This document shows, piece after piece, positions 6,626 to 49,274 of a stretch of DNA of 64,000 nt. Below the pieces are notes generated by a model. It ran no database searches. It saw only the letters and a program-made list of their open reading frames with translations, and was not told where the DNA came from. The position numbers were made by a program, and so were the translations under genes. This stretch comes from Chlorobiota bacterium (GTDB lineage: Bacteria; Bacteroidota; Ignavibacteria; OLB7), in assembly GCA_016788565.1 (NCBI GenBank), contig JAEUSP010000064.1, positions 289 through 64,288 of the forward strand, written 5' to 3'. Each line of letters begins with the position of its first letter. The first letter of the stretch is position 1.

Positions 6626-6800
6626 CGTTCGGAGGCTCACGCTCATACTTCGACGAAGCTCAGCATGAGCGGAGAGCCGGATTCGTGGTGTAGCGGTCAT
6701 TGGTCATTAGTTATTTCGTGAGTTCCCGGCTCCATCTCCATCTCACTCTTCCCATCTCACTCTTCAATCTTCGCTTCGGCCCCCTCTCCCACCCGCCGAA
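6626..6800 (+). repeat. Composite intergenic element: module C copy 2, then a 'GTCATTGGTCATTAG' heptamer-type run (module A), then a 'CTCACTCTTC' run (module B)
   Basis: Direct sequence match to the modules at 21.69 kb, 36.0-36.3 kb and 40.96-41.27 kb. It lies in the long leader upstream of deaD. Confidence 0.7.
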
Positions 6801-21599: not shown

Positions 21600-21710
21600 C
21601 GGCTTGTTGTTGTTAGTTCATGGTTCGTTGCAAAGAAACGATTGCGGATATTCTTCTTCGTTTGGCATTCCACTGACTGGTGGATTGTGGTCATTAGTCA
21701 TTAGTCATTA

Positions 21711-24570: not shown

Positions 24571-24627
24571 GCAGGTGTTTTTTATCGTTCTTTCAGTCTT
24601 GTTCATTGGCATCTCCTGTGTGTGAAA

Positions 24628-27600: not shown

Positions 27601-29496
27601 TGGCAAGTCCCATTTCACGTCGCGGAAGGCAACGCGGATTCCGTCGGGAGTGTTCTTTTTGAAAATGTCAATCAGCGCGTTCCGGTTGATGACGGTCTCC
27701 TTCAGCGAGGTGATGGAGCTTGCCGGAAGGTCCAGCGAAATCATGTCGCCAATTTTTGCGGTTGGCTCAACATACACCGCCTCGGCCACGGCCAGCTCGG
27801 TGGCGGAATCGCTGACCGCCCCCACCACATCGAAGTTTTTGCGGATCATCCCAAGCTCCCCAAACCACCAGGGTTTCGGTTTCTTCCCGCCGTTGCAGTC
27901 GAACTTCACTCTGCCGATTCCGCTGGGGCGGCTGGGGTCGGCAGATTTGGAGCTTGCGTCCCAATCTTCCACCACAATCGTGAAGCCGCCAGCAATCAGC
28001 GTGTCGGGAAGTTTTTTGGCGATAATCAGGTCGGGGAATCGCTCGAAAATGCTGGTGGCGCGCTTGTCGGCGCAGGCCGCGCCGTCGTTGCGGATGGTTT
28101 TGCCGTTGAACTCCAGAGTAAACCGCCACGCATAATTCACCCCTTCTTTCGGGGTGAAGCCATCGCTTCCGTTGGCGAACGCAAGCTCGAAATAGGTGCG
28201 GTCGGCCCCTTTCCCTTTTGTGGCAATAATTCCTGCGGCCACGTTCCCTTTCAGCTTCCGGCTGAACACCGGCTGCGATTTGCTCCCAACCAAATCGTAC
28301 GGAAGATTGGCGCGGCGGTCGGAAACAAACACCTCCACTTCCGCCCCCGTCACCGCATCAAGATTGATGCCTGGTTCGGCATATCCGGCAAACTGCATTG
28401 CCCGTTTGCCAACGTCGGTTTGCTTTGCTGCGGTTGGCGTTAGCGCAACACAGCCGAAGGTTTTGCCAAGCTGAATTTCATCGGTCTTGACCAGCGGCAG
28501 CGTATCTGTTTTTTTGGCTCCGATGGTGTCGGGGTTGATGGGAAGCTCCACAAGATCAATCGGCTTGTCGGTGATCTTGATGGGGTTGGTGACCGAGTCG
28601 TTCAGCATTGGGGTGATGTTGTTCCACTGGAAGGAGCAGACATCGCTGAAGCCGTTGTTGCGGAAGGCAAGGTTGCCGGAAGGATCAACCGCCTGGACTT
28701 GCCAGGCATAGCTTGCGCCGGGGGTAAGTGGCGGGTCGGCCGGGCCGTACAGAAGCGTTGGGCCGTTTGCTGTTTGCTCAAAAAATGCGGGGCTGGTGGC
28801 GGCCTTCATCGCCTGCTGCGGCGATTGCCCTTTCACGATTGGGACCATCTTGAAACGGTACTGCGTTGCCGCCGGCGCGCCCGGCGGAATGGTCCATTGG
28901 AACTGCACAAGTTGCGGCTTGGTGGCTTTCACAACTTGGCCGCAGGTTGGCTGCAACGGCTCGGGTTCGTCGGCGGTGCGGACCACAAACGTGGCGCAGC
29001 CGCTTGGCTCCTGGGGCGAAAGCGGGGCCAGCGTCTTGAACTCCAACGCCCGAACGCAAACCCGATAAACCCCTTCCGGCAGCAGCTTGGTTCGGCCAAT
29101 CAAGTCCTTATCGGCCCCTTTGAAGCGAACCGCGTTGCCGTCAAAAATTTTGAAGTCGTTCAGGTTCAGCGTCCGCACCGCCCCTGGCTCGATTCGGAGC
29201 GCGCTAATCGGGTATTCATCTTTCGTCTCGATTCGGGTACTGCCGTCGGTGTTTTCGGCAAAGCCAGCAAGCCGGAAATCGTAGCCCCGAGAAAGGTCTT
29301 GGTTCTGGACGGTGATCAGAATCCGGTTTGGGTTCGCAAGCCAGACGGAAAGATCGGGGGAGTATGGCGGAAGCACCGCAATCGTCACGTTCAGCGGTGA
29401 TTGTGCGCGAAGCCCCGCGCCCCCCGCGCCGGCAAGCATCAACAACAGCAGCGGCAGTGTTCGGCTAAGCCATCGTAGTGTGTAGCGTCGGTTCAT
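24628..29496 (-). CDS. Giant secreted hypothetical protein (1622 aa)
   Basis: Clear signal peptide (LLLLMLAGAGGAGLRAQS). It is co-directional and tightly spaced with its neighbours (16 bp to the FN3 gene). I recognised no catalytic motif. Confidence 0.6.
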   Translation of the reverse strand: MNRRYTLRWLSRTLPLLLLMLAGAGGAGLRAQSPLNVTIAVLPPYSPDLSVWLANPNRILITVQNQDLSRGYDFRLAGFAENTDGSTRIETKDEYPISALRIEPGAVRTLNLNDFKIFDGNAVRFKGADKDLIGRTKLLPEGVYRVCVRALEFKTLAPLSPQEPSGCATFVVRTADEPEPLQPTCGQVVKATKPQLVQFQWTIPPGAPAATQYRFKMVPIVKGQSPQQAMKAATSPAFFEQTANGPTLLYGPADPPLTPGASYAWQVQAVDPSGNLAFRNNGFSDVCSFQWNNITPMLNDSVTNPIKITDKPIDLVELPINPDTIGAKKTDTLPLVKTDEIQLGKTFGCVALTPTAAKQTDVGKRAMQFAGYAEPGINLDAVTGAEVEVFVSDRRANLPYDLVGSKSQPVFSRKLKGNVAAGIIATKGKGADRTYFELAFANGSDGFTPKEGVNYAWRFTLEFNGKTIRNDGAACADKRATSIFERFPDLIIAKKLPDTLIAGGFTIVVEDWDASSKSADPSRPSGIGRVKFDCNGGKKPKPWWFGELGMIRKNFDVVGAVSDSATELAVAEAVYVEPTAKIGDMISLDLPASSITSLKETVINRNALIDIFKKNTPDGIRVAFRDVKWDLPTQRTEVLTDGIAIYPSSSPIPTPPAEITLDSAFTLAIDSLIIRPASASVKGAVLLPTSIISNDTCTRARVPFPTTTITSTCEFYQEIASADYGRWHIGETGLLVYGKGYTVDFSAAQSPAGPMPPLAASWKGVVLNAGTTPDSPSDSVISNRGYVQAKYTFVNGLITGSGFAARMNMGGAFVYHALDPFGYQINLTGGGYLRVAKSAIENGEFNNVSMRLPRVAISTAESSMNRVDVHNITLKIQADQDQFADLTVKDNLAWGEYSNKPSSPKRYYLITGSSTDVPAHFYLGARWMPPFYPLADTTFTTPLFAPATAQLETQRLQGVTIPSIANVPLMIATRDRPNPTDGLKFPAETVVKIWMNVARTGVHTEVLLRLQKDRMGEVEMGPVWETGPAYAGEAPFKTTFGFDPKKKDQTNKLVRLQFVESAMWYSELMGSVKLPMPVDAEIAFKQMMFTSTAECAGGQVDLSQPDTMAYWGVGLVPKDPTKSAGILCVKLGVIYLTAAGFNEPRHFAKPFYLVWGEMKASGNMGRLAFDYNSVGQKFDRFGFSPELVKLSPYIPSDSGHILAYGSVAINFFGSKRLSIVDYKSAKLNNPFNGRYVRVLDTTYMGAPPSQLEWQRNWGDGIANLEYDSIRYHVDRQDGFFGAGEVSLFNITGGMYSTIDIAAEGICFRVMEESAHTFALGPVAQMSAMGNIWGCGCIVGESLEKIALGGEISSSLGIGFSIAARGGNMVSMIMSYSPTRFVMEANGAMFVNVGAVDLEVTGLASFTVERGEEIFAEGYFRGTVNLGAVIAGVEGEGEFDWHLGTDYQSVQGRVAVRIWGYLGGLGAQTGIFFGHNVPKERVWVMDGINGRFGLNKGGLPGRLTGFYAFLNVEASVSFYFLASGGFQLYVGIGAFVHDSPFIGGTSVPGLAFPYFVGNVGVRIWGEILGGLVSAAAWGNLQFTGAIPPAFEGTIGLEGCVLWVLCGSVDITCGYNRTDGFYMH

Positions 29497-29529
29497 AGCG
29501 GCTGTCCATATCTGTGGTTCAAGCGTTTC

Positions 29530-29645
29530 GTGTCGGTTGTTATACTCGGAACATAGTGGCTTGCGAAAAACTCAATCAAGTGCGCTATGGATTCCCGCTT
29601 TCGCGGGAATGACAACGCAGGTGTTTTCGCAAACCACGTTCATCA
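29530..29645. repeat. Inverted copy of the 18040-18160 element, including the palindrome 'ATTCCCgctttcgcGGGAAT'
   Basis: The reverse complement of 29585-29640 reads 'aacgtggtttgcgaaaacacctgcgttgtcattcccgcgaaagcgggaatcca'. The flanking arm 'gagtttttcgcaagccactatgttccgagtat' resembles 18124-18160. Confidence 0.7.
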
Positions 29646-29649
29646 GAGT

Positions 29650-31389
29650 TTATCGGCCTTCTTCTTCGGGGCTATCTGGTTTCCAGGAGAAGGTTCGGCT
29701 GTAGGCCAGGGTGGCCGTTAGCTCGTTGAAATCGCTGCTGGCCGAGATTGTTCCGGCCCCCTGGGTGCGGTACAGCGTGAAGGTGAATTGATCTTCCGTT
29801 GTTGGGCGGAATCCGGCATTTGCCGTCAGGTTTATCACCGTGCCATCGAACGCCTCCATTTGTCCGGTGGCCAAGTTCAGCGCGGTTGTTTCCGTTGCGG
29901 TGTAGCCGGCCGAGGCCCCCACCGAGAGCGTGTTATCGAACAACCCGAGGGAGCCGTTCAGGGTTCCGCCCGTTGTTCCAATATCCAGCGTTCCGGTTTC
30001 GGTGGTCCCGCGCAGCACCGAGAATCCAATGCTGACCGCGCTCTCCACAAAAGTGAGGTTGTAGATCAGCGAAATGTTGTTCCCGCGTGAGTTGGTGAAA
30101 GCGTTGGTGAAGGCGTTCAGATCGCTGAACTCCTGGTAGTTGCCGATGACGGTGATGAAGTGGTTCAACGCCTCCGATTGCAGCAGCAACCGTGGCGCAA
30201 GCGTGGCCGATTGTGAAACGTTCCGCACACGGATGGAGTCGTTGATTGCCACCCGCCCCGCCGATTGGTCGGTGGAGTAGTTGATGTAGTTGGCATCAAT
30301 CCCGAAGGCATCGGTTGGGTACCAGCCAACGTTTGCCGAGCCGATAAGTCGGTTGGTTTCGGCAAAGCGGGTGTCCAGCAAGTTGTCGTGCTGGATTCCC
30401 ACCGATCCCCCAAGCCGCAAGCGGTTATCGAACAAGTCCAACGCAGGGGCAATCGTCCACCGCTCGAAATCGCTTGCCAGATACCACGTTCCCAACGAAG
30501 TGAAGTTCGGCTCCACCCGCTCGTATCCCGCACGGATTTTGAACGTGGGGATTGCAAAACTTAGCCCAGCCTTGCTGGCCAAATTCAGCGCGGTGGAGTT
30601 GTGAATCGGCTGGACGCTGGAGAAGAAATCAAGGTCACTGCTGTCAAGGTCGGTCAGTGGGGCGCGGGTGTCGCGGGTGTGAAGGCTTCCGGCAACGTCG
30701 GCATCCAACGTCAGTTCGGGGGTGATGTTGGTTTTCAGCGTCAGCCCCAGCACACTGTTTTCGGCGGGATAGAGTTCGTTCTGCGTTGGTGCTTTTTTCA
30801 GCGACGCGCTGTCGTCGTTGGCATGGAACCAGATAACATCGAAGTAGCTTTCCTGGCTGCCGAACCCAACTTTCAGCGCGTAGCCGTTCCGCTGGTAGGC
30901 GGGGATGTTGTAGAACTGCGTGGTGTCTTCCTCAACCGCCCGTTGCAGCCGCCCAATCATCCCAGCAAACCGGAACTTCCCCGGGTTGAACTCCATCCCG
31001 GCTCCCAAGAACGTCACTCCATCCAACGTGTAGGGGGACATGGTCATGGCGCGGTAGCCGAAGTATCCGGTCAGCGATTTGTAGCGTGGCGAAATTCCGA
31101 ACTGATTGAACGGCTGGCGGAAGTCCCGCTCCTGCTCGCTGAAGATGAAGTCAATCGGAAGCTGAAGGCTGTAGATTGTTGGGTTGAAGGTCCCGTTCAC
31201 AGTCCAGCTGAACGGTTCGCGGCGTTCGGGAATTCCGCTTGCCGAGTACCCCACCACCGAAGCACCCACCGACCCGCTGAAGGAGAACGGAGGTGCCTCG
31301 GTGATTTTTTCAACATCCGTTTGGGCAACGGCTTGCTGTGCTGCAATCAGCAGCAGCAGAATCGGGATATGTGTCCGCAGCCTTGCCAT
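29650..31389 (-). CDS. Predicted outer-membrane beta-barrel protein
   Basis: Signal peptide (ILLLLIAAQQAVAQ). Alternating amphipathic beta-strand pattern. C-terminal aromatic residue ('...TLAYSRTFSW'). It sits at the head of an operon-like block of secreted proteins. Confidence 0.5.
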   Translation of the reverse strand: MARLRTHIPILLLLIAAQQAVAQTDVEKITEAPPFSFSGSVGASVVGYSASGIPERREPFSWTVNGTFNPTIYSLQLPIDFIFSEQERDFRQPFNQFGISPRYKSLTGYFGYRAMTMSPYTLDGVTFLGAGMEFNPGKFRFAGMIGRLQRAVEEDTTQFYNIPAYQRNGYALKVGFGSQESYFDVIWFHANDDSASLKKAPTQNELYPAENSVLGLTLKTNITPELTLDADVAGSLHTRDTRAPLTDLDSSDLDFFSSVQPIHNSTALNLASKAGLSFAIPTFKIRAGYERVEPNFTSLGTWYLASDFERWTIAPALDLFDNRLRLGGSVGIQHDNLLDTRFAETNRLIGSANVGWYPTDAFGIDANYINYSTDQSAGRVAINDSIRVRNVSQSATLAPRLLLQSEALNHFITVIGNYQEFSDLNAFTNAFTNSRGNNISLIYNLTFVESAVSIGFSVLRGTTETGTLDIGTTGGTLNGSLGLFDNTLSVGASAGYTATETTALNLATGQMEAFDGTVINLTANAGFRPTTEDQFTFTLYRTQGAGTISASSDFNELTATLAYSRTFSWKPDSPEEEGR

Positions 31390-31446
31390 TGGTGTTCCCT
31401 CTGGTTTGATCGAATGATCCTTGTGTTGTGTGAGTAGGCTACGGCA

Positions 31447-33945
31447 TCACCGCGCCACCACAATGCTGTTGCTCACCATTCCTTGCTCCGTTTGCATCCG
31501 CAGAAAGTAGAGGCCTGCCGGAAGCCCGGTAAGATCGTAGTTGATCTGGGTTGAACCAGCCTCCATCGCGCCGTTGTACACGGTGGCAACGGTGGTTCCC
31601 AGGGCATCAACCAGCCGCAGTTGAACCAGCCCGGCGCGCCGCACTGTGGCGGTGAATTGCGTTTGGCCGTTTGCGGGGTTTGGCTGTGCGGCAACCCACA
31701 TTCCTGATGTTTCTTCGGTGGCATCCACGCTGGCCGATGCGGTGGTGAGGCTCCAGGTTTCCGACCACGGCCCAACGCCTGCATTGCTTTCGGCACGGAC
31801 GCGCCAGTGCAGGGTTTTCAAGTTCGGCAACACCCCTACGTTCAGCGTTGTGCCCTGGATATTTCTGATCCCTTTCACCAGGGTGCTGAAGCCGGGGTCG
31901 GTGGCAATCTGAAGCAGATAGTACTGGGTTCCGGGAACCTCGCTCCACTGGAAGTCGAGCACCGTCCAAAGGTTTGGCGATTTGTTGGCTGGGGCAATCA
32001 GCGTTGGCGCGGCAAGCGTTGGCGGTTGTGTGTTGAAGCTGCGGGTTTGGGACCAATCGCTAACCCCAACGTTGTTCCGCGACTGCACGCGCCAGTGGTA
32101 GGTGGTTGCCGTGTTCAGGTCGGGGATGGAGATGGAGGTTGTGGTCACGCCCGTGACCTCGGTCAGCACCGTGTTGAAATCGGACGTTGTGGAAAGCTGC
32201 ACGCGATAGCTTCCGGCAGCCGGGGCCGCGCTCCATTGCAACACTGGGCTGATGGAAATGCCGTTTTCTTTATCAAGCGGATAGATCAAACTTGGTGCCG
32301 AGGGGGCGATTGGCTGAACAGAAACGCCGCTGAATGCCCCGGGTGAGTTTGCCGCAGGGCGGTGCCCGCCGGAGAAATCAAGCGGGGTCCCGTTGCTGAT
32401 TGAGCCGGAAGGAACTGGCGGATTTTTTGGGGCATCCACCCAGGAAAAATCCGAGGCGATGAAGGTCCGTGCGCTGATCAGATTTCCCCCCGGTTTTGGC
32501 GCGTAGTTGTTGTTGGCGGGGTCAATCAATTCCGGCGCAAACTCGTTGATGCTGTTGTCCTGCTTCAGCTGGATTTCGTTGCAGTCAATGTTCTGCGGGT
32601 CGCAGCCTGGCTCGCGCCCGTCGGCGGAAACCATCATCAAAATTCCATGCTGTCCGCTTCCGCCATTCCAGATCACGTTCCCTTTTATCCGCACGTTTTG
32701 GTCGGCGCGGGAAGGGCTGGGGATGTTGGTTCCTTCGGTGGTGGTCATCGGGGCATCCACCGCAAAGTGGCTTACCAGCGTGCGGGTTGGCAGCGGATTG
32801 AAGAAGACGTTGTTGTACAGATAGACGTTCCGGTTGGGGATCGGGGCCGCTTGCCCCAGAACGGAATCGGCCCCCCAACCACCCAAAGCAAGATAGGTTG
32901 CGCACAGGCTGTCGTTTGTGCAGTGGCGCGTCCCATGCACGGCTTGGAACAGGGGCGCGGCTTCGGTCTCATCGGTGGCAACGCGGTACAGGGTGTTCCA
33001 GGCAATCAGCACGTTGTAGCCACCGGCAACGTTCAACGGAGTGCCGGTAACGTCGTGCAGAAGATTGTTCACCACGCGGGCATCGTAGATTTCGTAGTGG
33101 AGCCAGGGTGCGGTCATTAAGCTGAACAGCGACCCACCCCCCAGCGAGATGCCGCGCCGGCAATCTCGGACAGTATTTGCTTCGGCCTTCAGGTACGCAG
33201 TGCCAGCAAACGTCATCACCCCCCAGTTCGTGGCTCCTGCAATATCATTCTTCAGCAGCTCGACATGCTGTGAACCAACCACAACCACTCCGTTCTCCGA
33301 TTGCCCTTGCAACTGGCACTGCTCCACGTGGAGATTGGTGCTGTTCAGGATTCCAATGCCGGCATCTACGTCGCTGTTTTCGGGATACTGGGCTGGGTCA
33401 GGAGCAATCAGGCGGAGGTTGCGAAGCAGGATGTTCTGGCCAGAAAACACCGCCAAGAGTGCCTCGGAAGGAGGCTTCTGGCCGGGGATGGAACGGATGG
33501 AAAAATCCATTAAATAAACGTTGCTGGGATTCCGCAGCGTTAGCCCGCCAACCAGCGTTGCCGAGCCAGCCCCATCAACAGCGCGGATGATGATGGGATG
33601 CTGGCGGGTGGTCGCAACGGTTTGGGTCAAAATTGGGGTGCAGTCGGGAAGGTCGCAGGTGTGGTCGCCGTTCATCAGGTTAATCCGGAAGCCGAAGTTG
33701 GCAAGCAGTGTGTTGTTCATCAGGCTCCATGCCGTGCTTACACTGCGCAGCGGAGTTTGGCGGGTCAAACCATTGTTCGTATCGCTTCCGGTTGGCGAAA
33801 CATAGACATCCACAAACGGCCCTGGCTCCCCAAGATCCCAAGCGCGTGGGTCCAGCGTTTGGGCAACTGTGGGGATTGTGCCAAGCAGCAGAAACAGGGC
33901 AATTGCCCGCAACATCTGTGGGAACGACCGTCCGTTTTTCATCAT
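31447..33945 (-). CDS. T9SS-sorted secreted protein with a right-handed parallel beta-helix domain, FN3-like domains and a Por_Secre_tail C-terminal domain
   Basis: The C-terminal ~80 aa read '...VQLRLVDALGTTVATVYNGAMEAGSTQINYDLTGLPAGLYFLRMQTEQGMVSNSIVVAR'. The beta-helix has 'NN..HD' repeats. The start was set at the internal Met (MMKNGRSFPQMLRAIALFLLLGTIPTVAQ) to avoid a 150-bp overlap with the upstream gene. Confidence 0.7.
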   Translation of the reverse strand: MMKNGRSFPQMLRAIALFLLLGTIPTVAQTLDPRAWDLGEPGPFVDVYVSPTGSDTNNGLTRQTPLRSVSTAWSLMNNTLLANFGFRINLMNGDHTCDLPDCTPILTQTVATTRQHPIIIRAVDGAGSATLVGGLTLRNPSNVYLMDFSIRSIPGQKPPSEALLAVFSGQNILLRNLRLIAPDPAQYPENSDVDAGIGILNSTNLHVEQCQLQGQSENGVVVVGSQHVELLKNDIAGATNWGVMTFAGTAYLKAEANTVRDCRRGISLGGGSLFSLMTAPWLHYEIYDARVVNNLLHDVTGTPLNVAGGYNVLIAWNTLYRVATDETEAAPLFQAVHGTRHCTNDSLCATYLALGGWGADSVLGQAAPIPNRNVYLYNNVFFNPLPTRTLVSHFAVDAPMTTTEGTNIPSPSRADQNVRIKGNVIWNGGSGQHGILMMVSADGREPGCDPQNIDCNEIQLKQDNSINEFAPELIDPANNNYAPKPGGNLISARTFIASDFSWVDAPKNPPVPSGSISNGTPLDFSGGHRPAANSPGAFSGVSVQPIAPSAPSLIYPLDKENGISISPVLQWSAAPAAGSYRVQLSTTSDFNTVLTEVTGVTTTSISIPDLNTATTYHWRVQSRNNVGVSDWSQTRSFNTQPPTLAAPTLIAPANKSPNLWTVLDFQWSEVPGTQYYLLQIATDPGFSTLVKGIRNIQGTTLNVGVLPNLKTLHWRVRAESNAGVGPWSETWSLTTASASVDATEETSGMWVAAQPNPANGQTQFTATVRRAGLVQLRLVDALGTTVATVYNGAMEAGSTQINYDLTGLPAGLYFLRMQTEQGMVSNSIVVAR

Positions 33946-34027
33946 GGTAGTTGGGTAGCTAATCATCATTTCATTGTTGGTTGTTGGTGAGTTGGGAAGC
34001 CCAATTGCTAAACGGCAAACCTTCCCT

Positions 34028-35896
34028 TCACCGGATAACCAGCAGCGGCAGCGTTGTGGTTCCCATGTTGCTGAACATGGTGCAAAAAAAATGTCCAGAA
34101 GGAAGAGCGGGGAGCAGAAGCTGAAGGCTTGTGGCCCCGGGTTGGATGGCGTTGGCACAAAGCTGCTTGCCGGAAGCATCGCTCACCACAATGCGTTGGC
34201 CTGCCGGTTGCGGTTCTGCGAACGCAATCACCACCACTCCGCTGGCGGCGTTGTAGCTGGCGCGAAATTGCCGTGTGGCAGCGGGGCCGCTCTGCTGAAC
34301 TTCTTCCTGAACTCCACTGGTTGCGGTGTTCCCAAACGCCCCGGGTGGTTGGTTCCCGTTTCGGAGCGCGCCGGTGTAATCGCGGGCCACGCTGTTGCTG
34401 AAATTTCCCGGCGGAGCTTCTGGGCGCGCGGGGCGGTCGCCGCCGGGGAAATCGGGGATGGGATAGGCGGTGATGCTCCGCAAAGGGCTTGCCGCCGGAA
34501 GCCGAAAATCCAGTTTGGAAGGATCAAGAAAATCTGGCTGCACGGTGTTGATGCTGTTCTGGGCCAGCAGCTGCGCTTGGTTGCACGTTGGGTTGCTGTT
34601 TTGGCATCCGGATTCATCCCCCAGCCCCAGCGAGTGTTCCGGCGGGCCGTTCCAGATCACGTTTCCACGGATGTTCAATCTGTCGTCGGCCAGCGCTGGG
34701 TTTGGCGCGTTCGATTCGGCAGGGTTCCCCGCAAACGGGCCGAAGATGGTGAAGTGCTGATATTGGCTTTGCACACCGGGCGGATTGCAGAAAATGTTGT
34801 TGAACAAATAGACGTTCCGGTTTGGGATGCGGATGTAGTTGTTTCCGTCGTCCACCACGGTGGTTCCCCAGCCGCCGGCGGCCAGGTAATCGGCGCAGTT
34901 TCCGCGCCCGTTGTCGCCCGGCTGGCCATCGCAACTTCTTCCGCCAAACACCGCCTCGAACAGGTGGCTTCGCACGCCGATTCGGTAGCAGGTGTTGTGG
35001 GCCATCAGAATGTTGTATCCCCCCTGAACTCCCAATGCCGCCCCTTCGGTATCGTGGATGATGTTGTTGATGACTTTCAGATCGTAGGCTTCGTAGTGAA
35101 TCCAGGGTGAGGTCATAAACTGGAATCCGGTCCCTTGCCCTGCGGTGAAGCCGCCGGTTCCTCCGTCGTAAATTTCGTTCGACTCCACGCGGAAATATGC
35201 CGAGCCGCCTTTCAGATAGATGCACCAATCGTTGGCGCGGTGGATTTTGGAATCAATGATGTGGCCATGCTGAACTCCAACAAAATCCACAGCATTATCG
35301 GTGGCCCCGCTGATGTCGCACCCTTCCAGATAGACGTGCTGTGATTGATTGATTTTCAGCCCTTCCTGCGGCCCTTGGTAATCGCGGATGTTGCCCGTGC
35401 CAATCACCGTCACGCCACGCAGCAGCAGATGGTTGCAGGCCTCGAAATGGAGTACATCGCCACCGCCGCCGGTGATGATGAGGTTCATCAGATAGAGGTA
35501 GCGGCAATCATACAAGTTCATATTTGGAAGGGTGACGGGGGGATAGCCCGGCGCGGTGGAAATCACCACAGGATGCTGCGCGCTGCCGTGGCGCGACTCC
35601 CAGTAGGTGGGCAACGTTTCTTCTGGATAATCCCCCGGCAGCAGCATAATTGCAAAGCCACGAGTAAGGGGAATGCTGCTGGGGATTCGGTTCCATGCTT
35701 CGCGCACCGTGCGGAGCGGCGCAACTTGGGTGGCGTTCGGGCTGGCATCGTTGCCGTTGGCGGGGCTCACCCACAGCGTATCCAATTCCGGGGTGCCGAT
35801 TTGGTAGCTGCGTGGCTCCATCTGCTGCGCGCTGGCGGCGGCCAGAGCAAGCAGCAGAAGAAGCATGGTGCAGCAGAAAATTCGGCGTAGAATCAT
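34028..35896 (-). CDS. T9SS-sorted secreted beta-helix protein, a paralog of 31447..33945
   Basis: Shared motifs with the neighbouring gene ('NNIIHDTEGAALGVQGGYNILMAHNTCYRIG' vs 'NNLLHDVTGTPLNVAGGYNVLIAWNTLYRV'). C-terminal domain ends '...SGHFFCTMFSNMGTTTLPLLVIR'. Signal peptide from the internal Met (MILRRIFCCTMLLLLLALAAASAQ). Confidence 0.7.
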   Translation of the reverse strand: MILRRIFCCTMLLLLLALAAASAQQMEPRSYQIGTPELDTLWVSPANGNDASPNATQVAPLRTVREAWNRIPSSIPLTRGFAIMLLPGDYPEETLPTYWESRHGSAQHPVVISTAPGYPPVTLPNMNLYDCRYLYLMNLIITGGGGDVLHFEACNHLLLRGVTVIGTGNIRDYQGPQEGLKINQSQHVYLEGCDISGATDNAVDFVGVQHGHIIDSKIHRANDWCIYLKGGSAYFRVESNEIYDGGTGGFTAGQGTGFQFMTSPWIHYEAYDLKVINNIIHDTEGAALGVQGGYNILMAHNTCYRIGVRSHLFEAVFGGRSCDGQPGDNGRGNCADYLAAGGWGTTVVDDGNNYIRIPNRNVYLFNNIFCNPPGVQSQYQHFTIFGPFAGNPAESNAPNPALADDRLNIRGNVIWNGPPEHSLGLGDESGCQNSNPTCNQAQLLAQNSINTVQPDFLDPSKLDFRLPAASPLRSITAYPIPDFPGGDRPARPEAPPGNFSNSVARDYTGALRNGNQPPGAFGNTATSGVQEEVQQSGPAATRQFRASYNAASGVVVIAFAEPQPAGQRIVVSDASGKQLCANAIQPGATSLQLLLPALPSGHFFCTMFSNMGTTTLPLLVIR

Positions 35897-35999
35897 TGGG
35901 CCAGTTCGGAAGCAGTGAATTGTTGATGAAGCCACATCCAGAATATGGCGTGCAGCGGTCACGTTTTTGGGGGGAAGTGGTGACGGGAAAATGGGGATT

Positions 36000-36295
36000 G
36001 CCAAATTTCCGCACGGAAGAGTGAAGAGTGAGGTGTGAAGAGTGAAATAAAGCCAAAGCGGGAAACCCACCAATGACTAACGACTAATGACTAATGACCA
36101 CCGCGAACGCAGCCCTCCGCTCATGCTGAGCCCCGTCGAAGTATGAGCGGAGCCACCGAACCGAGCCGATTTCACTACCTGCCCTCTCCGAAGCAAAGAG
36201 TGAAGAGTGAGGTGTGAAGAGTGAAATAAAGCCAAAGCGGGAAACCCCCCAATGACTAATGACTAACGACCAATGACCGTCCCCCAACTGTGGCA
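36000..36295. repeat. Composite intergenic element in a divergent promoter region: two direct copies of [module B + 'aaataaagccaaagcgggaaaccc' + module A heptamer run] flanking module C copy 4
   Basis: 'gaagagtgaagagtgaggtgtgaagagtgaaataaagccaaagcgggaaaccc..aatgactaa(c/t)gactaa...' occurs at 36018-36098 and at 36196-36290. Module C lies at 36105-36172. Confidence 0.8.
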
Positions 36296-36427
36296 TGTGA
36301 GTTCGGACACCGAGCGTCCGGTGTTGAAATTGGTGGGTGGTAGATTTGGCATACTTTCACTGCAACGCAATGCAGTTGGGCAACAAGCAGTTATTTTCCA
36401 TCAACTACTTCATCAGCAACACCGACC

Positions 36428-38401
36428 ATGAGCACCACTGAAACCACACTAACCACCAACGACATTCCCCTACACCGGCTACGCGAAATTGAGCGGATGT
36501 CGGTACGGGCATGGAATGTTTGCCAGAACAACAACCTCACCACGCTATCGGCATTGCTTCACCACTACCAGGCTCACGGAACGTTTGCCAAGTTCCGCCA
36601 CGCGGGCCGCCTAACCGAAACTGAGCTTATCAACATCTGCCGCAAATACTTGCAGGAAGCGAATGTTCAGCGATTGCAGAGCATCCAGAAAAAATTAGAT
36701 CGGCTTGATCTGAACGTCCCATCGCCCGATTGGTCCCTGTGGTCCCAGACTGACCTGACCAGCCTGAACAACGAACTGCACCAGCGGATTGAAAATTTCT
36801 CGACGGGGGCGAAAGACTTACTGCGGTTTATTGTTCCACCAGTGCACGCCAACATCCGCGCTTTTGATGACTATGTTAGCGCGCTTCAGCAGAAAGTGGG
36901 GTTCACCCCAGCCGACAAATTGACCTTGCAAGAACTGCAAGCAGCAAGGGCTGAGGTCATTCAGTTATCAAAGCAGTTCAGCACCTTTTTACCGGAGGAG
37001 GAATCGTTCCAGCAATTCGCCACACTCTGGCGCGAGCGTTTCGGGTTTACGGCAGAGGAGTTATCGGGCTATCGCCAGGCCTTTATTGCACGGCAATTTC
37101 CGCTATTCCATTTTTTGAACGACCTGCTGTTTGTGCGTGGCAAGGGGTTGCCCGATCACATCCAGAAAACGATGACAGGCCGCTACTCATTCCGGTTAGG
37201 CGACCAGCAACGGCAACTGGAAAGCATTGCCAATGAAGTTGGATTAACACGCGAACGGATTCGCCAGATTGCGGGAACAATCCCCGGGCGTATCCAAACG
37301 GTTGTTGCATCGCTTGGGCCAATAGCTGAGTACCTCTGCTACCAACCACTGTTCTACAAAGGGCGCGACCTGCTGATTATTGATGATGCCTACGCCCAAT
37401 ATGTCAATGCCAGCGAAAGCGTCTCCTTCACCCCAGCGTTCATCGCGGTTGTTCTGGAGACGTTCTTGAAGGAACATTACGACCGGTTGGAAGAAGACTT
37501 CGACGGAGCCACCGACTACTTGGTAAGCAGCGAACTTACCGAGGCGTTTGACTTCGACGCATTTTTGCGGCGGATGGCCGAGCGGCTGGAGCAACGAATA
37601 ACCCAGCCATATAAACTGAACTTGATGCAAGAGGTTGAAGCGAATCTGAAAACTGCTTCGCGGCTTCAGTTGCGGCGGGTGGTTGCTGTCTGCGAACTGT
37701 TGGCAGGTAAGGAGTTTGGGCTTGCGGCAACCGCTGCTGGCGAAATACTGTTCCAGCGGAACACAAAAAAGCGGCTGGATGAGCATATCGCTGATTTGTT
37801 GTTAGAGGTTGGGACCCCGCTGCATGTGGAAGAATTATCGGCACGATTGAACCAAGCGTTCCCCGAGCTGGAAACCACTCCCGAATCTGTACGCGGCACA
37901 ATGCTGCGGTTCCCCGAACGCTTTGCCCGATACAACACCGGCAGCACCTACGGCCTTAGCGAATGGGAAACAGCGGGGGAAGGGCTTAAAAGAGGGACGT
38001 TTGCTGATATTGCCGAAGAATTTTTAGCAGCAAGCGATTGCCCCCGCCATTGGACCGATATTGCCCAGCATGTGATGCGATACCGCACAACAACCGAGCG
38101 GACAGTGTTCGGCACCCTGAAAGCCGACATGACGGGGCGGTTCCATTTTTACAATGGTGGGATGGTGGGATTATCGCAAAAGCAGTACGAAGGGATTGAC
38201 ACAAACTACCGCGTGATTGGCGGCCCCACCTACCAGAATTTGCGCACAGTCATTCAGGATATGGGGGGGAATGTGGAGACTTCCAAGTTGGTGGTCTATT
38301 GTATGCTCCATTATCGCCTGCCGGAGCAGCAAGCAGTGCATTTTGTCCATCGCGTTTTGGCGGGGGATCGGCAAGAATCTGAGGCGGGGGTGGAGAGTTA
38401 G
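36428..38401 (+). CDS. Hypothetical 657-aa protein with an N-terminal RNA-polymerase alphaCTD-like HhH domain and an internal sigma-70 region-4-like HTH; putative transcription-associated regulator
   Basis: 'LREIERMSVRAWNVCQNNNLTTLSALL....FAKFRHAGRLTETELINI' resembles alphaCTD ('[23 protein letters not shown]...LGKKSLTEIKDV'). 'LESIANEVGLTRERIRQIAG' resembles the sigma region 4.2 core 'VTRERIRQIE'. Confidence 0.5.
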   Translation: MSTTETTLTTNDIPLHRLREIERMSVRAWNVCQNNNLTTLSALLHHYQAHGTFAKFRHAGRLTETELINICRKYLQEANVQRLQSIQKKLDRLDLNVPSPDWSLWSQTDLTSLNNELHQRIENFSTGAKDLLRFIVPPVHANIRAFDDYVSALQQKVGFTPADKLTLQELQAARAEVIQLSKQFSTFLPEEESFQQFATLWRERFGFTAEELSGYRQAFIARQFPLFHFLNDLLFVRGKGLPDHIQKTMTGRYSFRLGDQQRQLESIANEVGLTRERIRQIAGTIPGRIQTVVASLGPIAEYLCYQPLFYKGRDLLIIDDAYAQYVNASESVSFTPAFIAVVLETFLKEHYDRLEEDFDGATDYLVSSELTEAFDFDAFLRRMAERLEQRITQPYKLNLMQEVEANLKTASRLQLRRVVAVCELLAGKEFGLAATAAGEILFQRNTKKRLDEHIADLLLEVGTPLHVEELSARLNQAFPELETTPESVRGTMLRFPERFARYNTGSTYGLSEWETAGEGLKRGTFADIAEEFLAASDCPRHWTDIAQHVMRYRTTTERTVFGTLKADMTGRFHFYNGGMVGLSQKQYEGIDTNYRVIGGPTYQNLRTVIQDMGGNVETSKLVVYCMLHYRLPEQQAVHFVHRVLAGDRQESEAGVES

Positions 38402-38545: not shown

Positions 38546-39280
38546 TCAATCAATCTTTGCTTGTTCTATTACTCGGTCATCAATAATCGCATTGTTGGTT
38601 TTTAAATCAGCATCATTCATTCCTGTTGCCAGTATTCTCAATTTTATTTTGACTTGCTTATCTGTGAATTTGCTATTGCTTCTGGCGCGGATCAGAATGT
38701 TCTTTTGTTCGTTAAACTTCACCGTTGAGTCTTGATTCTTGAAGTCAAAATGAATCTTCGCTAATGTGCTTAGAGTTGCAAATGTTGGAGGGAAAAGGGC
38801 GTAAGTCAAAGGAAAGTCTTCCTGATTTTCAGAATCAGGAACTAAGCTAACAACAACGGATAGCATACCTCCATTAGGTGAGTTTGGGGATGTTAGATTC
38901 TTTGCATAGTACGTCCCTGACACATCCAAATTCATTGATAAAGTGTCATCAATACTGAGTTGAAATGGCTGGCTATAGCAATAAAAAATTTCTGGATTTT
39001 TTTTATGATGAATAAGCTGAGGTTCAATTGGTATGGACTGCTGAACACCAGAAGAAGTAGTAATCACAACAGAGCCTACTTCTGTTGTGAAATTGAATTT
39101 TACCTCTTTTTTATCAAAGAAGTGATGGTATGCTCCTGCTACTGTCACTCCATTTGTAAATTTTGTAGAAGTAGTCTGACCGAAGCAAAGGGTCACTCCT
39201 AAAAATATAGAAGCAACGCTCACGATGGAGCAAAGAGTTGTTTTCATTGATCGTTCAGTTGTGTTTTGAAGATTCATCAC
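38546..39280 (-). CDS. Hypothetical secreted protein (AT-rich island; paralog of 39277..39990)
   Basis: Signal peptide. Local GC is roughly 38%. It shares 'VQ(Q/R)SI..(E/Q)P', 'F(Y/S)(C/W)YS(Q/E)PF(Q/E)L', 'SG(T/S)YY' and 'KI(K/R)LR(I/L)' blocks with the adjacent gene. Confidence 0.6.
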   Translation of the reverse strand: MMNLQNTTERSMKTTLCSIVSVASIFLGVTLCFGQTTSTKFTNGVTVAGAYHHFFDKKEVKFNFTTEVGSVVITTSSGVQQSIPIEPQLIHHKKNPEIFYCYSQPFQLSIDDTLSMNLDVSGTYYAKNLTSPNSPNGGMLSVVVSLVPDSENQEDFPLTYALFPPTFATLSTLAKIHFDFKNQDSTVKFNEQKNILIRARSNSKFTDKQVKIKLRILATGMNDADLKTNNAIIDDRVIEQAKID

Positions 39281-39990
39281 TGCAAATCTTCATCTACTTT
39301 GTTGTCAGTATGAAATGGGTTTACGTTCTGAATTTTCAAATCGGAAGTGTGTATTTTGCTGGAATACACGCCTAAGCGAAGCCTAATTTTTTTAGAAGAA
39401 AGGCCTTTTCTCATTTTTGAATTATCTATAACAATAGGCTTTGTTTGATTGAATGCTATTGGTTGTGCATTGTGAAACTTCACAACATATTCTTCCCTAG
39501 TGCTCAAAACATGATCTTGCTGAGTTTCACTACTTTTACGTAGGGGATTGTCTTCGATTAAGTTGACATAAACAAGAAACTCATCTCCGTTCAAAATATC
39601 TGAAGATTTAGGGAGTGTACTGGTGTTGTAGTAGCTTCCCAAAATGTGCATATCAGCCTTAACGGTGTCAGTAGTGAATAATTCAAATGGCTCACTATAC
39701 CAATAGGAAAGCTCTGAATCTGTACTTCCAACAGGTTTAGGCTCTGGCTGCATTGTGATGGAGCGTTGTACTCCATCAGGGCTTGCTATTTGAATTTTTC
39801 CAAATTCAATCTCAAATGTGAATGTACAGTTCTTTGTACTATGTTCCCCTTTTATTAAAAGGCTATTAGCAATCTCCTTGCTTGTGGTATTTATACCAGT
39901 ATTGCCACTTACCCCGAGTACCAGAAAAATGGCCGGTATAAAACTGAGTAATTGTTGGAATTGGGGGAACGTCTGCATGGTAATCCGCAA
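39277..39990 (-). CDS. Hypothetical secreted protein (AT-rich island; tandem paralog)
   Basis: Signal peptide (IFLVLGVSG). It overlaps the downstream paralog by 4 bp and has the same conserved blocks. Confidence 0.6.
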   Translation of the reverse strand: MRITMQTFPQFQQLLSFIPAIFLVLGVSGNTGINTTSKEIANSLLIKGEHSTKNCTFTFEIEFGKIQIASPDGVQRSITMQPEPKPVGSTDSELSYWYSEPFELFTTDTVKADMHILGSYYNTSTLPKSSDILNGDEFLVYVNLIEDNPLRKSSETQQDHVLSTREEYVVKFHNAQPIAFNQTKPIVIDNSKMRKGLSSKKIRLRLGVYSSKIHTSDLKIQNVNPFHTDNKVDEDLQ

Positions 39991-40959: not shown

Positions 40960-41270
40960 GGCCGGGGCAGTGGTCAGTGGTCAGTGGTCAGTAGTCAGTG
41001 GTGGGTGGTTGGTTTCCGACTTTGGCTTCATTTCACTTTTCGCTTGGGTGAGGGCCGGCGGTGAAAGCGGCTTGGTTCGGTGGCTCACGCTCATACTTCG
41101 ACGGGGCTCAGCATGAGCGGAGGGCGGGATTCGGTGGCCTCATCTCTCACCTCTATTTCCTACTTCCTTAGTCAGTAGTCATTAGTCATTGGTCATTAGT
41201 GAGTTTCCGGCTTTGGCTTCATTTCACTCTTCACACTTCACACTTCACTCTTCGCTTGGAAGCAGCTTGG
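40960..41270. repeat. Composite intergenic element: module A run (40969-41005), module B ('ttcatttcacttttcgcttgg'), module C copy 5 (41073-41135), a second module A run (41168-41205) and a second module B (41215-41262)
   Basis: Direct matches to the 36.0-36.3 kb and 6.6-6.8 kb elements. Confidence 0.8.
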
Positions 41271-46166: not shown

Positions 46167-48080
46167 TTGATGAGCCGCACGTTGTTCGCCTGCCTGTTGC
46201 TTCCGTTGTCGCTGTTTTCTGGGGTTATCCTGGTTTCCTGCGGCAGCAATCCAGTTGACGCTGTTTCCAACAAAATCATTGCTGGCGAAAGCCGTGCGGT
46301 GGTCGTAAGCACTGTTCCGCCCTCGGGAGGAACCATGGTTGTGAATGTGCAGGGGGATTCGTTGAATGGGATGGAACTAACCGTCCCCAGCGGTGCATAT
46401 TCTGATGCCCGCACCTTCCGTATCTCTGCTGCACCAATCCAAAGCCACCAGTTGGGAAGCAACTGCAATCCGGTTACTCCATTAATCACCATCGAAAATG
46501 GGGGAGGATATGCTGATGAATTTATGACCCTCACCATCCCCATCTCCGTTCCCGACAACCACTTTGCAATGGCGTTCCTGTTCGATGACGTAACGGGCGA
46601 AATGGAAGGACTGCCGTTGGTGGAATCCACCAGCGATCACGTGAAAATTTTCACCGCAAATTTTGCCCATTCTGATATTACCGCGCTGAAACGGCGGTTG
46701 GCTTCCGGCAGTGCCAGCAGCGGGCCAAGCCGCTCCAGAATTTTTGTTTCATCCATCGAAAAAAATCTGCTTGAAGGGGCCAACGAATCCACCTTCCGCC
46801 CGGGTCTGGACGACTGGCAGTTCACCAACTACGGCTCGTATGCTGCCCCGGACGGGCATTGTGCTGGGCAAAGCCTTGCGGCAATGTGGTATCATAACAA
46901 GAAACGAATAAACGGCAGATTATATGGGCGATACGATAACGATGGCACGCGGAAAACTCCCACAATTTGGCAAGATGATGTTGGCGGCTACAAGTTCTGC
47001 TCGGTGCTGCAAAACGATATGGAATGGAATTCGTTAAGCCGAAAATTATTTTCTACAGTGCAGAGTACAATCCCAGATGTTATTACCTACTACGCTGCAT
47101 CCTACAGTTTTTTGCTGTTGCACCGCCCTCAGTTCATTGGAATTGCGAACGATACTGCAGGACATGCGGTGATTGGATATGCCATTGGTGATGGCAATAT
47201 CTATGTTGCTGACCCGAACTACCCGGGCGATGTCACGCGCCGTATTCCCTACGCGAACGGCAAATTCGGAACCTATTTTTCTGGCAGTAACGCGGCACAA
47301 ACTGGTGTGCCATTTCCCGTTATTCGTTTTTTTGGTGAGAGCGCGTTGATTGATTACTCCACCATTGAATCACGCTGGGCTGAGGTTGCTTCTGGCGAGA
47401 TCGGCAATGGGCAGTTTCCCGAATACACCGTAAAGGGGATGAACGACGCTGGAACATTTGTGCCGCTGACCAATGGTTTTACTATCAAAGGGAACACGCT
47501 GAATTTTGATATTTCTTCCACCACCTCATTGAAAATTGCAACGGTTTTTGATGAATCGGAACGTGTTCTACCAATCATCAAAGAGGCAGTTCAGCTTCCG
47601 CAGGGAATGCAGCGTGTTGGATTTTATGTCACTAATAGAACGAACGATTGGACTGGCTTTACATGGGTGCAAGTAAAAGTAGAAGGCACGGATAATCCAG
47701 CACCGCCGCCACCCACAACCGGATTATCCTTTAACGGCGAACCTTACGTTATTGGGTTAATTAACTATACGCTTGACTCTGGGCTGAGTCTCATCTTCTA
47801 TCCAAGTTTTGATGTCTTAACGTGGTTCCAGATTGGGGTAAAGCCATTTGTTGGGGTTGGGGCGTACACTGCTACCCGAGGAGATAATTACGTGGCATAT
47901 TTTGATACTCGTGGAGCCACGCCAAGCTTTAACTACAGGACAGACGAACAGCACACAGCAAAGGTAGAAATTACTCAGTTTGATGATAATTTTATTGTGG
48001 GCAAAGCAACTGGATCAATGAAAGATTTAGTCACCTTAGAAGTGCGGACATTCACGTTTGTTTTTCGAATTGAACGTTAA
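46167..48080 (+). CDS. Hypothetical lipoprotein (637 aa)
   Basis: Signal/lipobox (LLLPLSLFSGVILVSCGSNP). No recognised domain. Confidence 0.55.
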   Translation: MMSRTLFACLLLPLSLFSGVILVSCGSNPVDAVSNKIIAGESRAVVVSTVPPSGGTMVVNVQGDSLNGMELTVPSGAYSDARTFRISAAPIQSHQLGSNCNPVTPLITIENGGGYADEFMTLTIPISVPDNHFAMAFLFDDVTGEMEGLPLVESTSDHVKIFTANFAHSDITALKRRLASGSASSGPSRSRIFVSSIEKNLLEGANESTFRPGLDDWQFTNYGSYAAPDGHCAGQSLAAMWYHNKKRINGRLYGRYDNDGTRKTPTIWQDDVGGYKFCSVLQNDMEWNSLSRKLFSTVQSTIPDVITYYAASYSFLLLHRPQFIGIANDTAGHAVIGYAIGDGNIYVADPNYPGDVTRRIPYANGKFGTYFSGSNAAQTGVPFPVIRFFGESALIDYSTIESRWAEVASGEIGNGQFPEYTVKGMNDAGTFVPLTNGFTIKGNTLNFDISSTTSLKIATVFDESERVLPIIKEAVQLPQGMQRVGFYVTNRTNDWTGFTWVQVKVEGTDNPAPPPPTTGLSFNGEPYVIGLINYTLDSGLSLIFYPSFDVLTWFQIGVKPFVGVGAYTATRGDNYVAYFDTRGATPSFNYRTDEQHTAKVEITQFDDNFIVGKATGSMKDLVTLEVRTFTFVFRIER

Positions 48081-48119
48081 TAACAATTTTAGTGCATCCA
48101 CCATGAATCAGTAAAAACG

Positions 48120-49274
48120 ATGAAACAATCCTCCTCTAAAAACAAATCACGGGAAGCATCAGCTTCACTCCATGAAGTCTTGCATGACGCTACTGGCCAA
48201 TTTTCAGTGATAGATATTCTGTCGGCTATTAATGACCTTCTGAAAAAGCAATCATGGAGTGAAGCGTTAAAAGAAATCATTCAAGAGGCTGAAACCATTG
48301 AGCCAGTTCATATTGACCTTGCGTTGCGTGCGCTCATTGATAAGCCAGACCACGAACGCGCTGAAAAATTAAACGGACTAACAGGCTATTTGCGTAGCCG
48401 AATATCTAACCCGACCCGCTGTGCGATTATTACCACTATTGCTCATTACCCTCCTATTTTCAGCGCACAGGAGCTGCTCCGTATTGCCAGTGACCAAAAT
48501 GATGATCGTGAGGTTCGGCTAACAGCATTGCGTGCATTGGCAAACAGCATTGCTGATTCGACAGTGTTCATCAGCCTGCACAATCTTATTGATCCTGAGT
48601 TATTCCGGACAAAAAACTTTTCAGAACAGGATGTCATCTGGGCGATTGCGGTGCTAAATGTTCTGGAGGCTCATCCAGCACAAATTTCTGGAAAGGCATT
48701 AACCATTGTGGAGTCGCTTGTTTATGCCCAAGACTTACGGTTGTGCCGCCGTGCTTTAGAAGTCGCTGGAACGTTGGGTGAAATTGATGCTATCGAACGG
48801 TTGTGCATGGCGGTACTTAGAAGACCTGAGTTGCAGAAATCGCTTGCCACAGCAATACAGCGGATCAGCAACAAGCCGATCAGCCTGCGCCATCTGCGTT
48901 GGGAAAATTTTGAAGAGTTGATGCGGCAGATGCTGCGAGGAATGGGGCATTTTGCAGTAGAGGTGACGCAAGCCTCGTATGATAACGGCGTAGATGTCAT
49001 TTCTAAAAGAAGCGATGGCGACGGAGAGGAGGCAGTAGTTGTGGTGCAATGCAAGTTGCGCTATCAAGGGAATATCAGCAGAGAAGATGTTGAGCATTTA
49101 CGAGATGCAATGCAGCAGCATAAAGCAAAAGAAGGAATCCTGATTACGACAGGAGGATTCTCGCGGGATGCCAAGGAGTATCAAGAGCAAAATAAATTCA
49201 TTCGGTTGTTCGACAAGAAAGAATTGCTACAACGGCTTGACAAAGTTTTTGGAGAAGGAAGGTATAAAATCTAA
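48120..49274 (+). CDS. HEAT-like repeat protein fused to a C-terminal Mrr-type restriction endonuclease catalytic domain (PD-(D/E)xK)
   Basis: The C-terminal ~120 aa read 'LMRQMLRGMGHFAVEVTQASYDNGVDVISKR...VVVVQCKLRYQGNISREDVEHLRDAMQQHKAKEGILITTGGFSRDAKEY', which matches the Mrr_cat topology (..D...D/E.VQCK.. then 'G.lvTTs.Ft..A'). The N-terminal region is leucine-rich HEAT/PBS-lyase-like helical repeats. Confidence 0.6.
   Translation: MKQSSSKNKSREASASLHEVLHDATGQFSVIDILSAINDLLKKQSWSEALKEIIQEAETIEPVHIDLALRALIDKPDHERAEKLNGLTGYLRSRISNPTRCAIITTIAHYPPIFSAQELLRIASDQNDDREVRLTALRALANSIADSTVFISLHNLIDPELFRTKNFSEQDVIWAIAVLNVLEAHPAQISGKALTIVESLVYAQDLRLCRRALEVAGTLGEIDAIERLCMAVLRRPELQKSLATAIQRISNKPISLRHLRWENFEELMRQMLRGMGHFAVEVTQASYDNGVDVISKRSDGDGEEAVVVVQCKLRYQGNISREDVEHLRDAMQQHKAKEGILITTGGFSRDAKEYQEQNKFIRLFDKKELLQRLDKVFGEGRYKI

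Follow-up and report, generated by a model that had tools for sequence, protein, structure and literature searches.

A 657-residue protein with alpha-CTD-like, sigma region 4 and HARE-HTH-type modules in a Chlorobiota bacterium, and its family in Bacteroidota

The gene considered here lies on the plus strand of a 64,000-nucleotide stretch of Chlorobiota contig JAEUSP010000064.1 (hereafter, the window, numbered from its first letter) and encodes a 657-aa protein. An earlier note, made from the sequence alone, had likened the N-terminus of this protein to the C-terminal domain of the alpha-subunit (alpha-CTD) of RNA polymerase (RNAP), quoting the peptide MSVRAWNVCQNNNLTTLSALL (aa 24-44), and an internal segment to sigma-70 region 4 (sigma4), quoting GLTRERIRQIAG (aa 272-283). 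Upstream and divergent from the gene lies a minus-strand block (22102-35896, ~13.8 kb) encoding Beta_helix, fn3 and Por_Secre_tail proteins, that is, cargo of the type IX secretion system (T9SS), together with a 1622-aa protein. The protein proves to be a further member of an alphaCTD-sigma4-HARE-HTH family that is already known and labelled by domain. In an AlphaFold model (pLDDT 87.6 overall), combined with profile searches, the predicted order of domains is: an alpha-CTD, a degenerate alpha-CTD, sigma4, an alpha/beta domain and a pair of winged helices of the HARE-HTH type, with a helical tail at the end. The second alpha-CTD, the two winged helices and the family-specific central domain had been overlooked in the earlier note. 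Neither the 657-aa protein nor any of the family members was found to contain an enzymatic domain.

Both proposed domain likenesses are upheld by profiles and by the predicted structure. The family profile of aa 10-82 retrieves from the PDB almost exclusively RpoA alpha-CTD chains (best E 5.4e-7), and RNA_pol_A_CTD (PF03118) is matched in the Pfam scan by 27 of 62 full-length family members (best 9e-10); the 657-aa protein taken alone gives no such match, and its predicted structure shows the alpha-CTD fold. In the alignment, R27, N30, G60 and T63 correspond to R265, N268, G296 and S299 of E. coli alpha, and Leu62 occupies the position of K298. R27, N30, G60 and E66 are each at least 90% conserved in the 62-sequence alignment. 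The profile of aa 100-190 matches RpoA CTD chains more weakly (best E 3.9e-4), and four helices are seen in the model. Where the family consensus of this second copy reads LSxRxxNxL...NxGxKTxxEL, the 657-aa protein has FSTGAKDLL...FTPADKLTLQEL; its clade has lost R, N and G-x-K of the motif. The arrangement thus differs from that of RpoA, in which the alpha-CTD follows an alpha N-terminal domain: here the domain is located at the N-terminus in two copies, one with Leu at the K298 position and one degenerate, and no alpha assembly domain (RNA_pol_A_bac or RNA_pol_L) was found in Pfam or NCBIfam scans of the protein.

The sigma4 module comprises regions 4.1 and 4.2. Pfam Sigma70_r4 matches the 657-aa protein alone at aa 241-281 below threshold (E 0.0014; 18.5 bits, gathering score 24.1), and its NCBIfam and PDB matches are weak and confined to region 4 of RpoS and RpoD. 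The 62-sequence full-length profile retrieves sigma region 4 chains from the PDB at E 3.7e-8 with both 4.1 and 4.2 aligned, 47 of the 62 members match Sigma70_r4 (PF04545; best 2e-8), and the predicted model is matched in Foldseek to the sigma4 structure 6ido_A (prob 0.99, TM-target 0.51). In the recognition helix T274-R-E-R-I-R-Q280, which corresponds in the alignment to T583-Q589 of sigma70, R277 is invariant and E276, R279 and Q280 are at least 90% conserved across the 62 sequences. In contrast to sigma-70 factors, the protein lacks regions 1-3 and carries region 4 internally; all sigma matches fall in region 4, and no match to Sigma70_r2 occurs in the 657-aa protein or in any of the 62 members. 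A true sigma factor is therefore ruled out. Two further identities were rejected: the RNAP delta subunit, on account of its different architecture, and MzaA, the sigma-like protein of the MZA system (NF041931), whose match is restricted to a 25-residue sigma4 motif (11.3 bits vs a cutoff of 800).

The central domain (aa 297-446), modelled mostly at pLDDT >90, has the lowest dN/dS (ratio of non-synonymous to synonymous substitution rates) of all domains; a PDB sequence-profile search returned no match for it, and the Pfam scan of members gave scattered noise with nothing consistent. The first winged helix (aa 447-518) is assigned through its homologs, as 19 of 32 homologous segments match HARE-HTH (PF05066; best 1.5e-5); for the second (aa 519-592) the number is 2 of 34. 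The two are homologous to each other (hhalign probability 96%, E 2.6e-9). PF05066 is not matched by the winged-helix segments of the 657-aa protein itself, and PDB sequence-profile searches placed neither of them; the winged-helix fold is seen in its predicted structure. One family member (P0010) scores above the PF05066 gathering score (26.9 vs 25.9), and in a scan of full-length members HA was matched by 6 and HARE-HTH by 5 of 62. The three-helix tail is the least conserved part (33-66% identity among orthologs).

A word-indexed search for the closest homologs yielded five clusters at 56-100% identity, and a repeat search with the family alignment returned the same five and nothing further. 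An exhaustive HMMER search, with the alignment of these five clusters as query, revealed a much larger family: at E<=1e-3 it comprises 1,888 representatives of clusters formed at 50% identity, of which 405 reach E<=1e-30. Almost all representatives belong to Bacteroidota and related bacteria of the Fibrobacteres-Chlorobi-Bacteroidetes (FCB) group; many are ~650 aa long and match end to end. The 657-aa protein, which itself seeds the family profile, is ~25% identical to typical Bacteroidota members; it shares the full length and domain order of the family, and members at 21-30% identity align with it end to end. The consensus of the 62 full-length sequences is marked by LSVRxxNxC...LRNCGxKTxxEL and the second alpha-CTD motif given above, followed by LTRERVRQI, FGRxSTYGLKxWE and KGGTIRDIxEEYL. 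Longer members are extended by extra alpha-CTD copies, HA repeats, HNH-associated repeats (HNH_repeat) or pentapeptide repeats, never by an enzyme. As the earlier note had it, the protein is neither a standard sigma factor, lacking region 2, nor a one-component regulator. The combination is not a one-off, however, and public records already name its members, though by domain ('RNA polymerase sigma-70 region 4 domain-containing protein', 'sigma factor-like helix-turn-helix DNA-binding protein', 'hypothetical protein'). Bacterial HARE-HTH proteins that combine features of the RNAP alpha-subunit and of sigma factors were reportedly noted, on computational grounds, by Aravind and Iyer in 2012. If these proteins are equivalent, they share alpha-CTD, sigma4 HTH and HARE-HTH and the lack of an enzyme with the 657-aa protein, which differs from them in representing a divergent solo clade.

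Screening of a single genome from each species yielded 34 loci, nearly all in Bacteroidota, with one in a Kapaibacterium and one in a Chlorobiota metagenome-assembled genome (MAG). Cultured carriers include Filimonas zeae, Pinibacter aurantiacus, Flavobacterium piscis, Ancylomarina longa and Maribellus maritimus, and odd MAG labels among the loci (Patescibacteria, Bacilli, Hyphomicrobiales) probably reflect binning. Family members were not found in plasmid, phage and IMG/VR collections. Against PADLOC-DB v2, the 657-aa protein gave only a spurious DrmMII match (E 0.0018), and three Bacteroidota members gave none; PADLOC has no model for the family protein of the cassettes described below.

When the family profile was run with hmmsearch against a set of 39 loci, the matches were full-length, and clustering of the neighbours in these loci revealed two recurrent partners: an ATPase of ~700 aa in 18 loci and a protein of ~540 aa in 17. 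Both follow the family gene immediately downstream and on the same strand in 15 loci (L012, L014-L018, L025-L029, L031, L034, L036 and L044; e.g. L017:6663-12513), which amounts to 15/34 sampled genomes or ~44%. The loci were drawn, starting from a 10-sequence winged-helix alignment, with two narrow peptide patterns. The larger partner is a DndD/PbeC-like ATPase (PADLOC DndD 1.4e-88; TIGR03185 243.3 bits vs a cutoff of 245.85), and the smaller one carries a DndE domain (PF08870, 4e-13) at its N-terminus, in fusion with an ATPase of the HerA/FtsK/VirB4 type (DUF87/AAA_10); in RefSeq they appear as DndD and 'DndE family protein'. Of the 34 loci, 18 have genes of the DndD-like and DndE::HerA kinds nearby. 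The gap of ~170 nt before the ATPase gene encodes a conserved protein of 60-65 aa with the motif LLE[AS]xKTKKLLKRN. In 15/15 cassettes its open reading frame (ORF) shares nucleotides with the family gene at its stop codon and with the DndD-like gene at its start; the ORF was not found elsewhere among the loci. The family gene thus opens a cassette of four tightly coupled genes, followed by the 60-65 aa protein, the DndD-like ABC ATPase and the DndE::HerA/FtsK fusion. The pair of a DndD-related ATPase and a DndE-fused HerA/FtsK protein (Krishnan et al. 2020) is described in PMC10853773. In the accessible part of that article no mention of an alphaCTD-sigma4-HARE-HTH partner was found, and the supplements contain no relevant term. 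Relative to the systems as presented there, the pair follows the family gene in 15/34 genomes with the small protein in addition, and the partner genes are absent from the window.

Other branches of the family have other neighbours, such that genomic context tracks family phylogeny. In a Flavobacteriales clade (L037, L040-L043), the gene adjoins genes for R-subunits of type I restriction-modification (R-M) systems (HSDR_N/SWI2_SNF2 or EcoEI_R_C/ResIII), and in L040, L041 and L043 an ORF of ~235-256 aa lies immediately upstream of it. At solo loci, the neighbours are housekeeping genes (TrmD, RF-2, GldD, methylmalonyl-CoA mutase) or defence-like ones (a C5 methylase with a HATPase_c_3 protein; DUF3644), and in one case, the Kapaibacterium homolog, a Por_Secre_tail protein.

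The 657-aa protein belongs to a deep, separate solo branch of the family tree. Genes for the DndD-like protein, the DndE::HerA fusion and the small protein are absent from the window by tblastn, and cassette partners are likewise absent at the locus in the relatives L007 and L009-L011 (56-77% identity). Whole-gene dN/dS is 0.20, 0.08 and 0.13 in comparison with L007, L009 and L010, respectively (dS 0.7-2.0), and purifying selection is seen in every domain.

The intergenic region upstream contains several elements, beginning with the repeats that the earlier note had taken as a mark of a shared, repeat-laden promoter region. Two direct repeats of 92 nt, 91% identical, are indeed present (36008-36099 and 36187-36278, plus strand); the element, however, is dispersed and is missing from the promoters of the relatives. 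It consists of a ~60-nt core (AGAGTGAAGAGTGAGGTGTGAAGAGTGAAATAAAGCCAAAGCGGGAAACC) followed by three to four AATGACT heptamers; further copies lie on the minus strand at ~40990-41036 and ~41171-41227, and heptamer runs recur at 6696-6715 and 21690-21716. Copy number and spacing vary between strains L003 and L004, which encode an identical 657-aa protein. The NCBI MAG contig L001 (9291-10000, compared with 35897-36427 of the window) also encodes the identical protein and differs upstream by ~149 nt, consistent with variation in repeat copies between assemblies or strains. In L007 and L009-L011, no copy was found. This strain variation and the absence from relatives identify the repeats as insertions resembling repetitive extragenic palindromic (REP) sequences or miniature inverted-repeat transposable elements rather than as operators. 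A scan of the window against Rfam found nothing, and the REP-like unit folds no better than shuffled sequence (z -1.3). That the inverted repeat pairs at 36.0-36.3 and 41.0-41.2 kb might bound a mobile element containing the gene was considered and rejected, because L009 and L010 retain the gene and its 171-aa neighbour without any copies.

Closer to the gene, a candidate promoter box has the sequence TAGATTTG, whose TA..TTT is invariant in five orthologous promoters; it conforms to TAnnTTTG, the -7 consensus of Bacteroidota. Around position -33 lies the palindrome CGGACA-N5-CGTCCG, a candidate autoregulatory operator. Its CGGACA arm is invariant and its right arm largely conserved in the same five promoters, which have different upstream neighbours. 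It occurs once in the window, where 3.1 occurrences are expected by chance at two mismatches, and hence gives no sign of a local regulon. On the side of the T9SS block, a motif GGTCACGTTTT-N-GGGG...GGTGAC with inverted GTCAC/GTGAC arms (35957-35990) precedes the first gene of the block by 61-94 nt. The motif, of which the window has a single copy, is conserved between the window and the relatives L007 and L009 and is a candidate promoter or operator of the block.

Table 1. The 657-aa gene, its predicted domains and the elements of its promoter (window coordinates)
Feature	Coordinates	Strand	Basis
Coding sequence of the 657-aa protein	36428..38401	+	ATG start; ORF list
Alpha-CTD-like helix-hairpin-helix domain 1 (aa 10-82)	36455..36673	+	profile vs PDB RpoA CTD
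Second alpha-CTD-like domain, degenerate (aa 100-190)	36725..36997	+	profile; four helices in model
Sigma-70 region 4 (4.1+4.2) helix-turn-helix (aa 241-296)	37148..37315	+	Pfam, family profile, Foldseek
Family-specific alpha/beta central domain (aa 297-446)	37316..37765	+	model
Winged helix 1, HARE-HTH type, motif STYGLSEWE (aa 447-518)	37766..37981	+	member segment scans
Winged helix 2, HARE-HTH-like duplicate (aa 519-592)	37982..38203	+	hhalign to winged helix 1
C-terminal three-helix tail (aa 593-650)	38204..38377	+	model helices 599-611, 618-628, 633-650
Candidate -7 promoter box (TAnnTTTG)	36341..36348	+	five orthologous upstream regions
Palindrome CGGACA-N5-CGTCCG, ~-33 position	36304..36320	+	five orthologous promoters

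These observations are best accommodated, in a reading that we hold to be somewhat on the probable side, if the 657-aa protein is an orphan member of an FCB-group family of non-enzymatic, multi-headed DNA-binding adaptors or regulators and has no defence-type partners nearby; such an adaptor or regulator would derive from a defence-type module. DNA binding by the family is inferred from its domains, and the conserved residues support it, being those at the DNA-contacting positions of the RpoA alpha-CTD and of sigma4. The modules could engage DNA in the following manner: sigma4 would insert into the major groove, alpha-CTD-1 would contact the minor groove of A/T-rich DNA, and the HARE-HTH domains would bind duplex DNA. 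HARE-HTH has been proposed in the literature as a reader of modified DNA. In the cassette and type I R-M contexts, the family protein may be the subunit that recognises DNA or directs its partners to a target, possibly with the ability to tell modified DNA apart; alternatively, it may regulate, in tight coupling, a defence-type machine that scans DNA. The 657-aa protein, whose DndD/DndE-type partners would have been lost or never present, is probably a stand-alone DNA binder sensitive to sequence or modification, and its gene is probably autoregulated via the palindrome in its own -33 region.

Several points weigh against this interpretation. Taken alone, the 657-aa protein stays below the Pfam thresholds for all three domain families. 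Its second alpha-CTD is devoid of the DNA-binding motif, and the first has Leu in place of K298. Support for the palindrome comes from five sequences, two of which are close relatives, and the search for partners covered 64 kb of the genome only. The 44% figure for the cassette derives from loci drawn with narrow peptide patterns and is hence not an unbiased one, and the contexts of solo members are mixed, many of them housekeeping, such that the role of the solo clade may be unrelated to defence.

The proposal of the earlier note, a dedicated local transcription factor for the T9SS, outer-membrane and giant-protein block that would bind the shared intergenic region and, through alpha-CTD and sigma4, recruit RNAP or mimic its contacts, appears distinctly unlikely. 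L007 and L009 retain the gene and the Beta_helix/Por_Secre_tail block in divergent orientation even at dS values of 0.7-1.8, the 35957-35990 motif is conserved near the first gene of the block in the same two loci, and the Kapaibacterium homolog also has a Por_Secre_tail neighbour. In L007 and L009, however, synteny extends over the whole region to either side of the gene, and conservation is higher for the neighbours (79-90%) than for the gene (77%), so that the linkage to the block reflects relatedness; L009, moreover, lacks the adjacent 612-aa Beta_helix gene. In L010, whose contig begins at the family gene, only the downstream 171-aa gene is kept, and the ortholog in L011 (56% identity) is flanked on either side by unrelated genes. 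Linkage to the block is seen in close relatives only, and a family-wide association with T9SS genes is absent: the genes that do recur beside the family are those of DndD/DndE::HerA or of type I R-M. The promoter palindrome is single in the window, and the repeats are dispersed insertions missing in the relatives. There is thus no evidence for a specific tie of the gene to the adjacent T9SS block.

Two further explanations take the RNAP origin of the modules more literally. The protein could be an accessory or initiation factor that redirects RNAP, e.g. to modified or foreign DNA, with sigma4 docking to the beta-flap tip, the alpha-CTDs making contacts similar to those with UP elements and the HARE-HTH domains acting in the manner of delta. 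The three module types are otherwise typical of the RNAP alpha, sigma and delta subunits, region 4.1+4.2 aligns completely to sigma70, and one member has a weak match to the NCBIfam delta-subunit model (TIGR04567). We nevertheless regard this possibility as unlikely: without sigma regions 2 and 3, core binding and a -10 function are missing; the conserved residues are DNA-contacting ones and do not distinguish RNAP docking; and the operon coupling is to DndD/DndE::HerA, not to transcription genes. RNAP-derived modules also serve elsewhere as ordinary DNA-binding parts, as BREX proteins use alpha-CTD-like domains with winged helices (PglW, which has three) and a sigma-type HTH (BrxL) for this purpose (PMC12839542). 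The likeness, drawn by description only, lies in the joint use of RNAP-derived modules and winged helices for DNA binding in defence proteins; it does not extend to the kinase, ATPase or protease domains of PglW and BrxL, of which the 657-aa protein has none. Alternatively, alpha-CTD and sigma4 could be displayed as a decoy of the RNAP surface, which would trap phage hijackers and trigger DndD/DndE::HerA, the 657-aa copy being an orphan remnant or acting on unlinked effectors. Phages most often hijack RNAP at its alpha-CTD and sigma region 4 surfaces, for example through anti-sigma factors on region 4 and modification of alpha-CTD R265. In line with such a decoy, much of the family is found in a defence-type operon context, some members have multiple alpha-CTD copies or pentapeptide repeats of the DNA-mimic type, and the residues equivalent to R265 and those of region 4 are kept. 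The idea is purely inferential, and we consider it highly improbable, as DNA binding explains the conservation pattern equally well and the solo clade is under purifying selection with no effectors nearby; that the family was not found on phages, plasmids or viral contigs is neutral in this regard. None of these three explanations has specific support. A more far-reaching version of the orphan reading, in which a four-gene Bacteroidota defence system relies on the family protein as its subunit for sensing or targeting, the modules acting as readers of promoter-like or modified invader DNA or as decoys for RNAP hijackers, and the 657-aa copy has been domesticated into a stand-alone regulator, seems to us decidedly doubtful.

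The 657-aa gene alone carries little weight; the family and the four-gene cassette are the more promising lead. Two promoter-reading RNAP modules and two HARE-HTH domains are combined in one non-enzymatic protein that is widespread in Bacteroidota and whose gene is, in many genomes, translationally coupled to those of a DndD-like ATPase and a DndE::HerA/FtsK translocase, and the cassettes in culturable hosts (Flavobacterium piscis, Filimonas zeae) offer an experimental target. They bear on how DNA-scanning machines of the DndD/DndE type pick their targets and on RNAP-derived modules as readers or decoys in immunity.

Some features of the surroundings may be added. Two paralogous minus-strand genes of low GC content (38546-39990; 244 and 237 aa; GC 0.41 vs ~0.58) separate the 657-aa gene from the 171-aa FlgD_ig/Por_Secre_tail gene; they encode proteins with signal-peptide-like N-termini and no Pfam match on record. 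They are absent in L009 and L010, strain contigs carry length variants of them (225 vs 243 aa), and the pair was probably inserted recently by horizontal transfer. Some 10 kb away from the 657-aa gene, the plus-strand region 46167-49274 (GC 0.49 at 46-50 kb) contains an ORF of 637 aa with no Pfam match on record, followed by a gene for a 384-aa restriction-endonuclease-like protein (Mrr_cat/NA-iREase1; 48120-49274), and may be a small defence islet. Finally, the genome of L007 (GCA_020850315.1), the closest relative that bears a name, is labelled 'Armatimonadetes bacterium' despite its Por_Secre_tail cargo and a TAnnTTTG box of the Bacteroidota type; the family being otherwise found in FCB-group bacteria, this label may be a misclassification.

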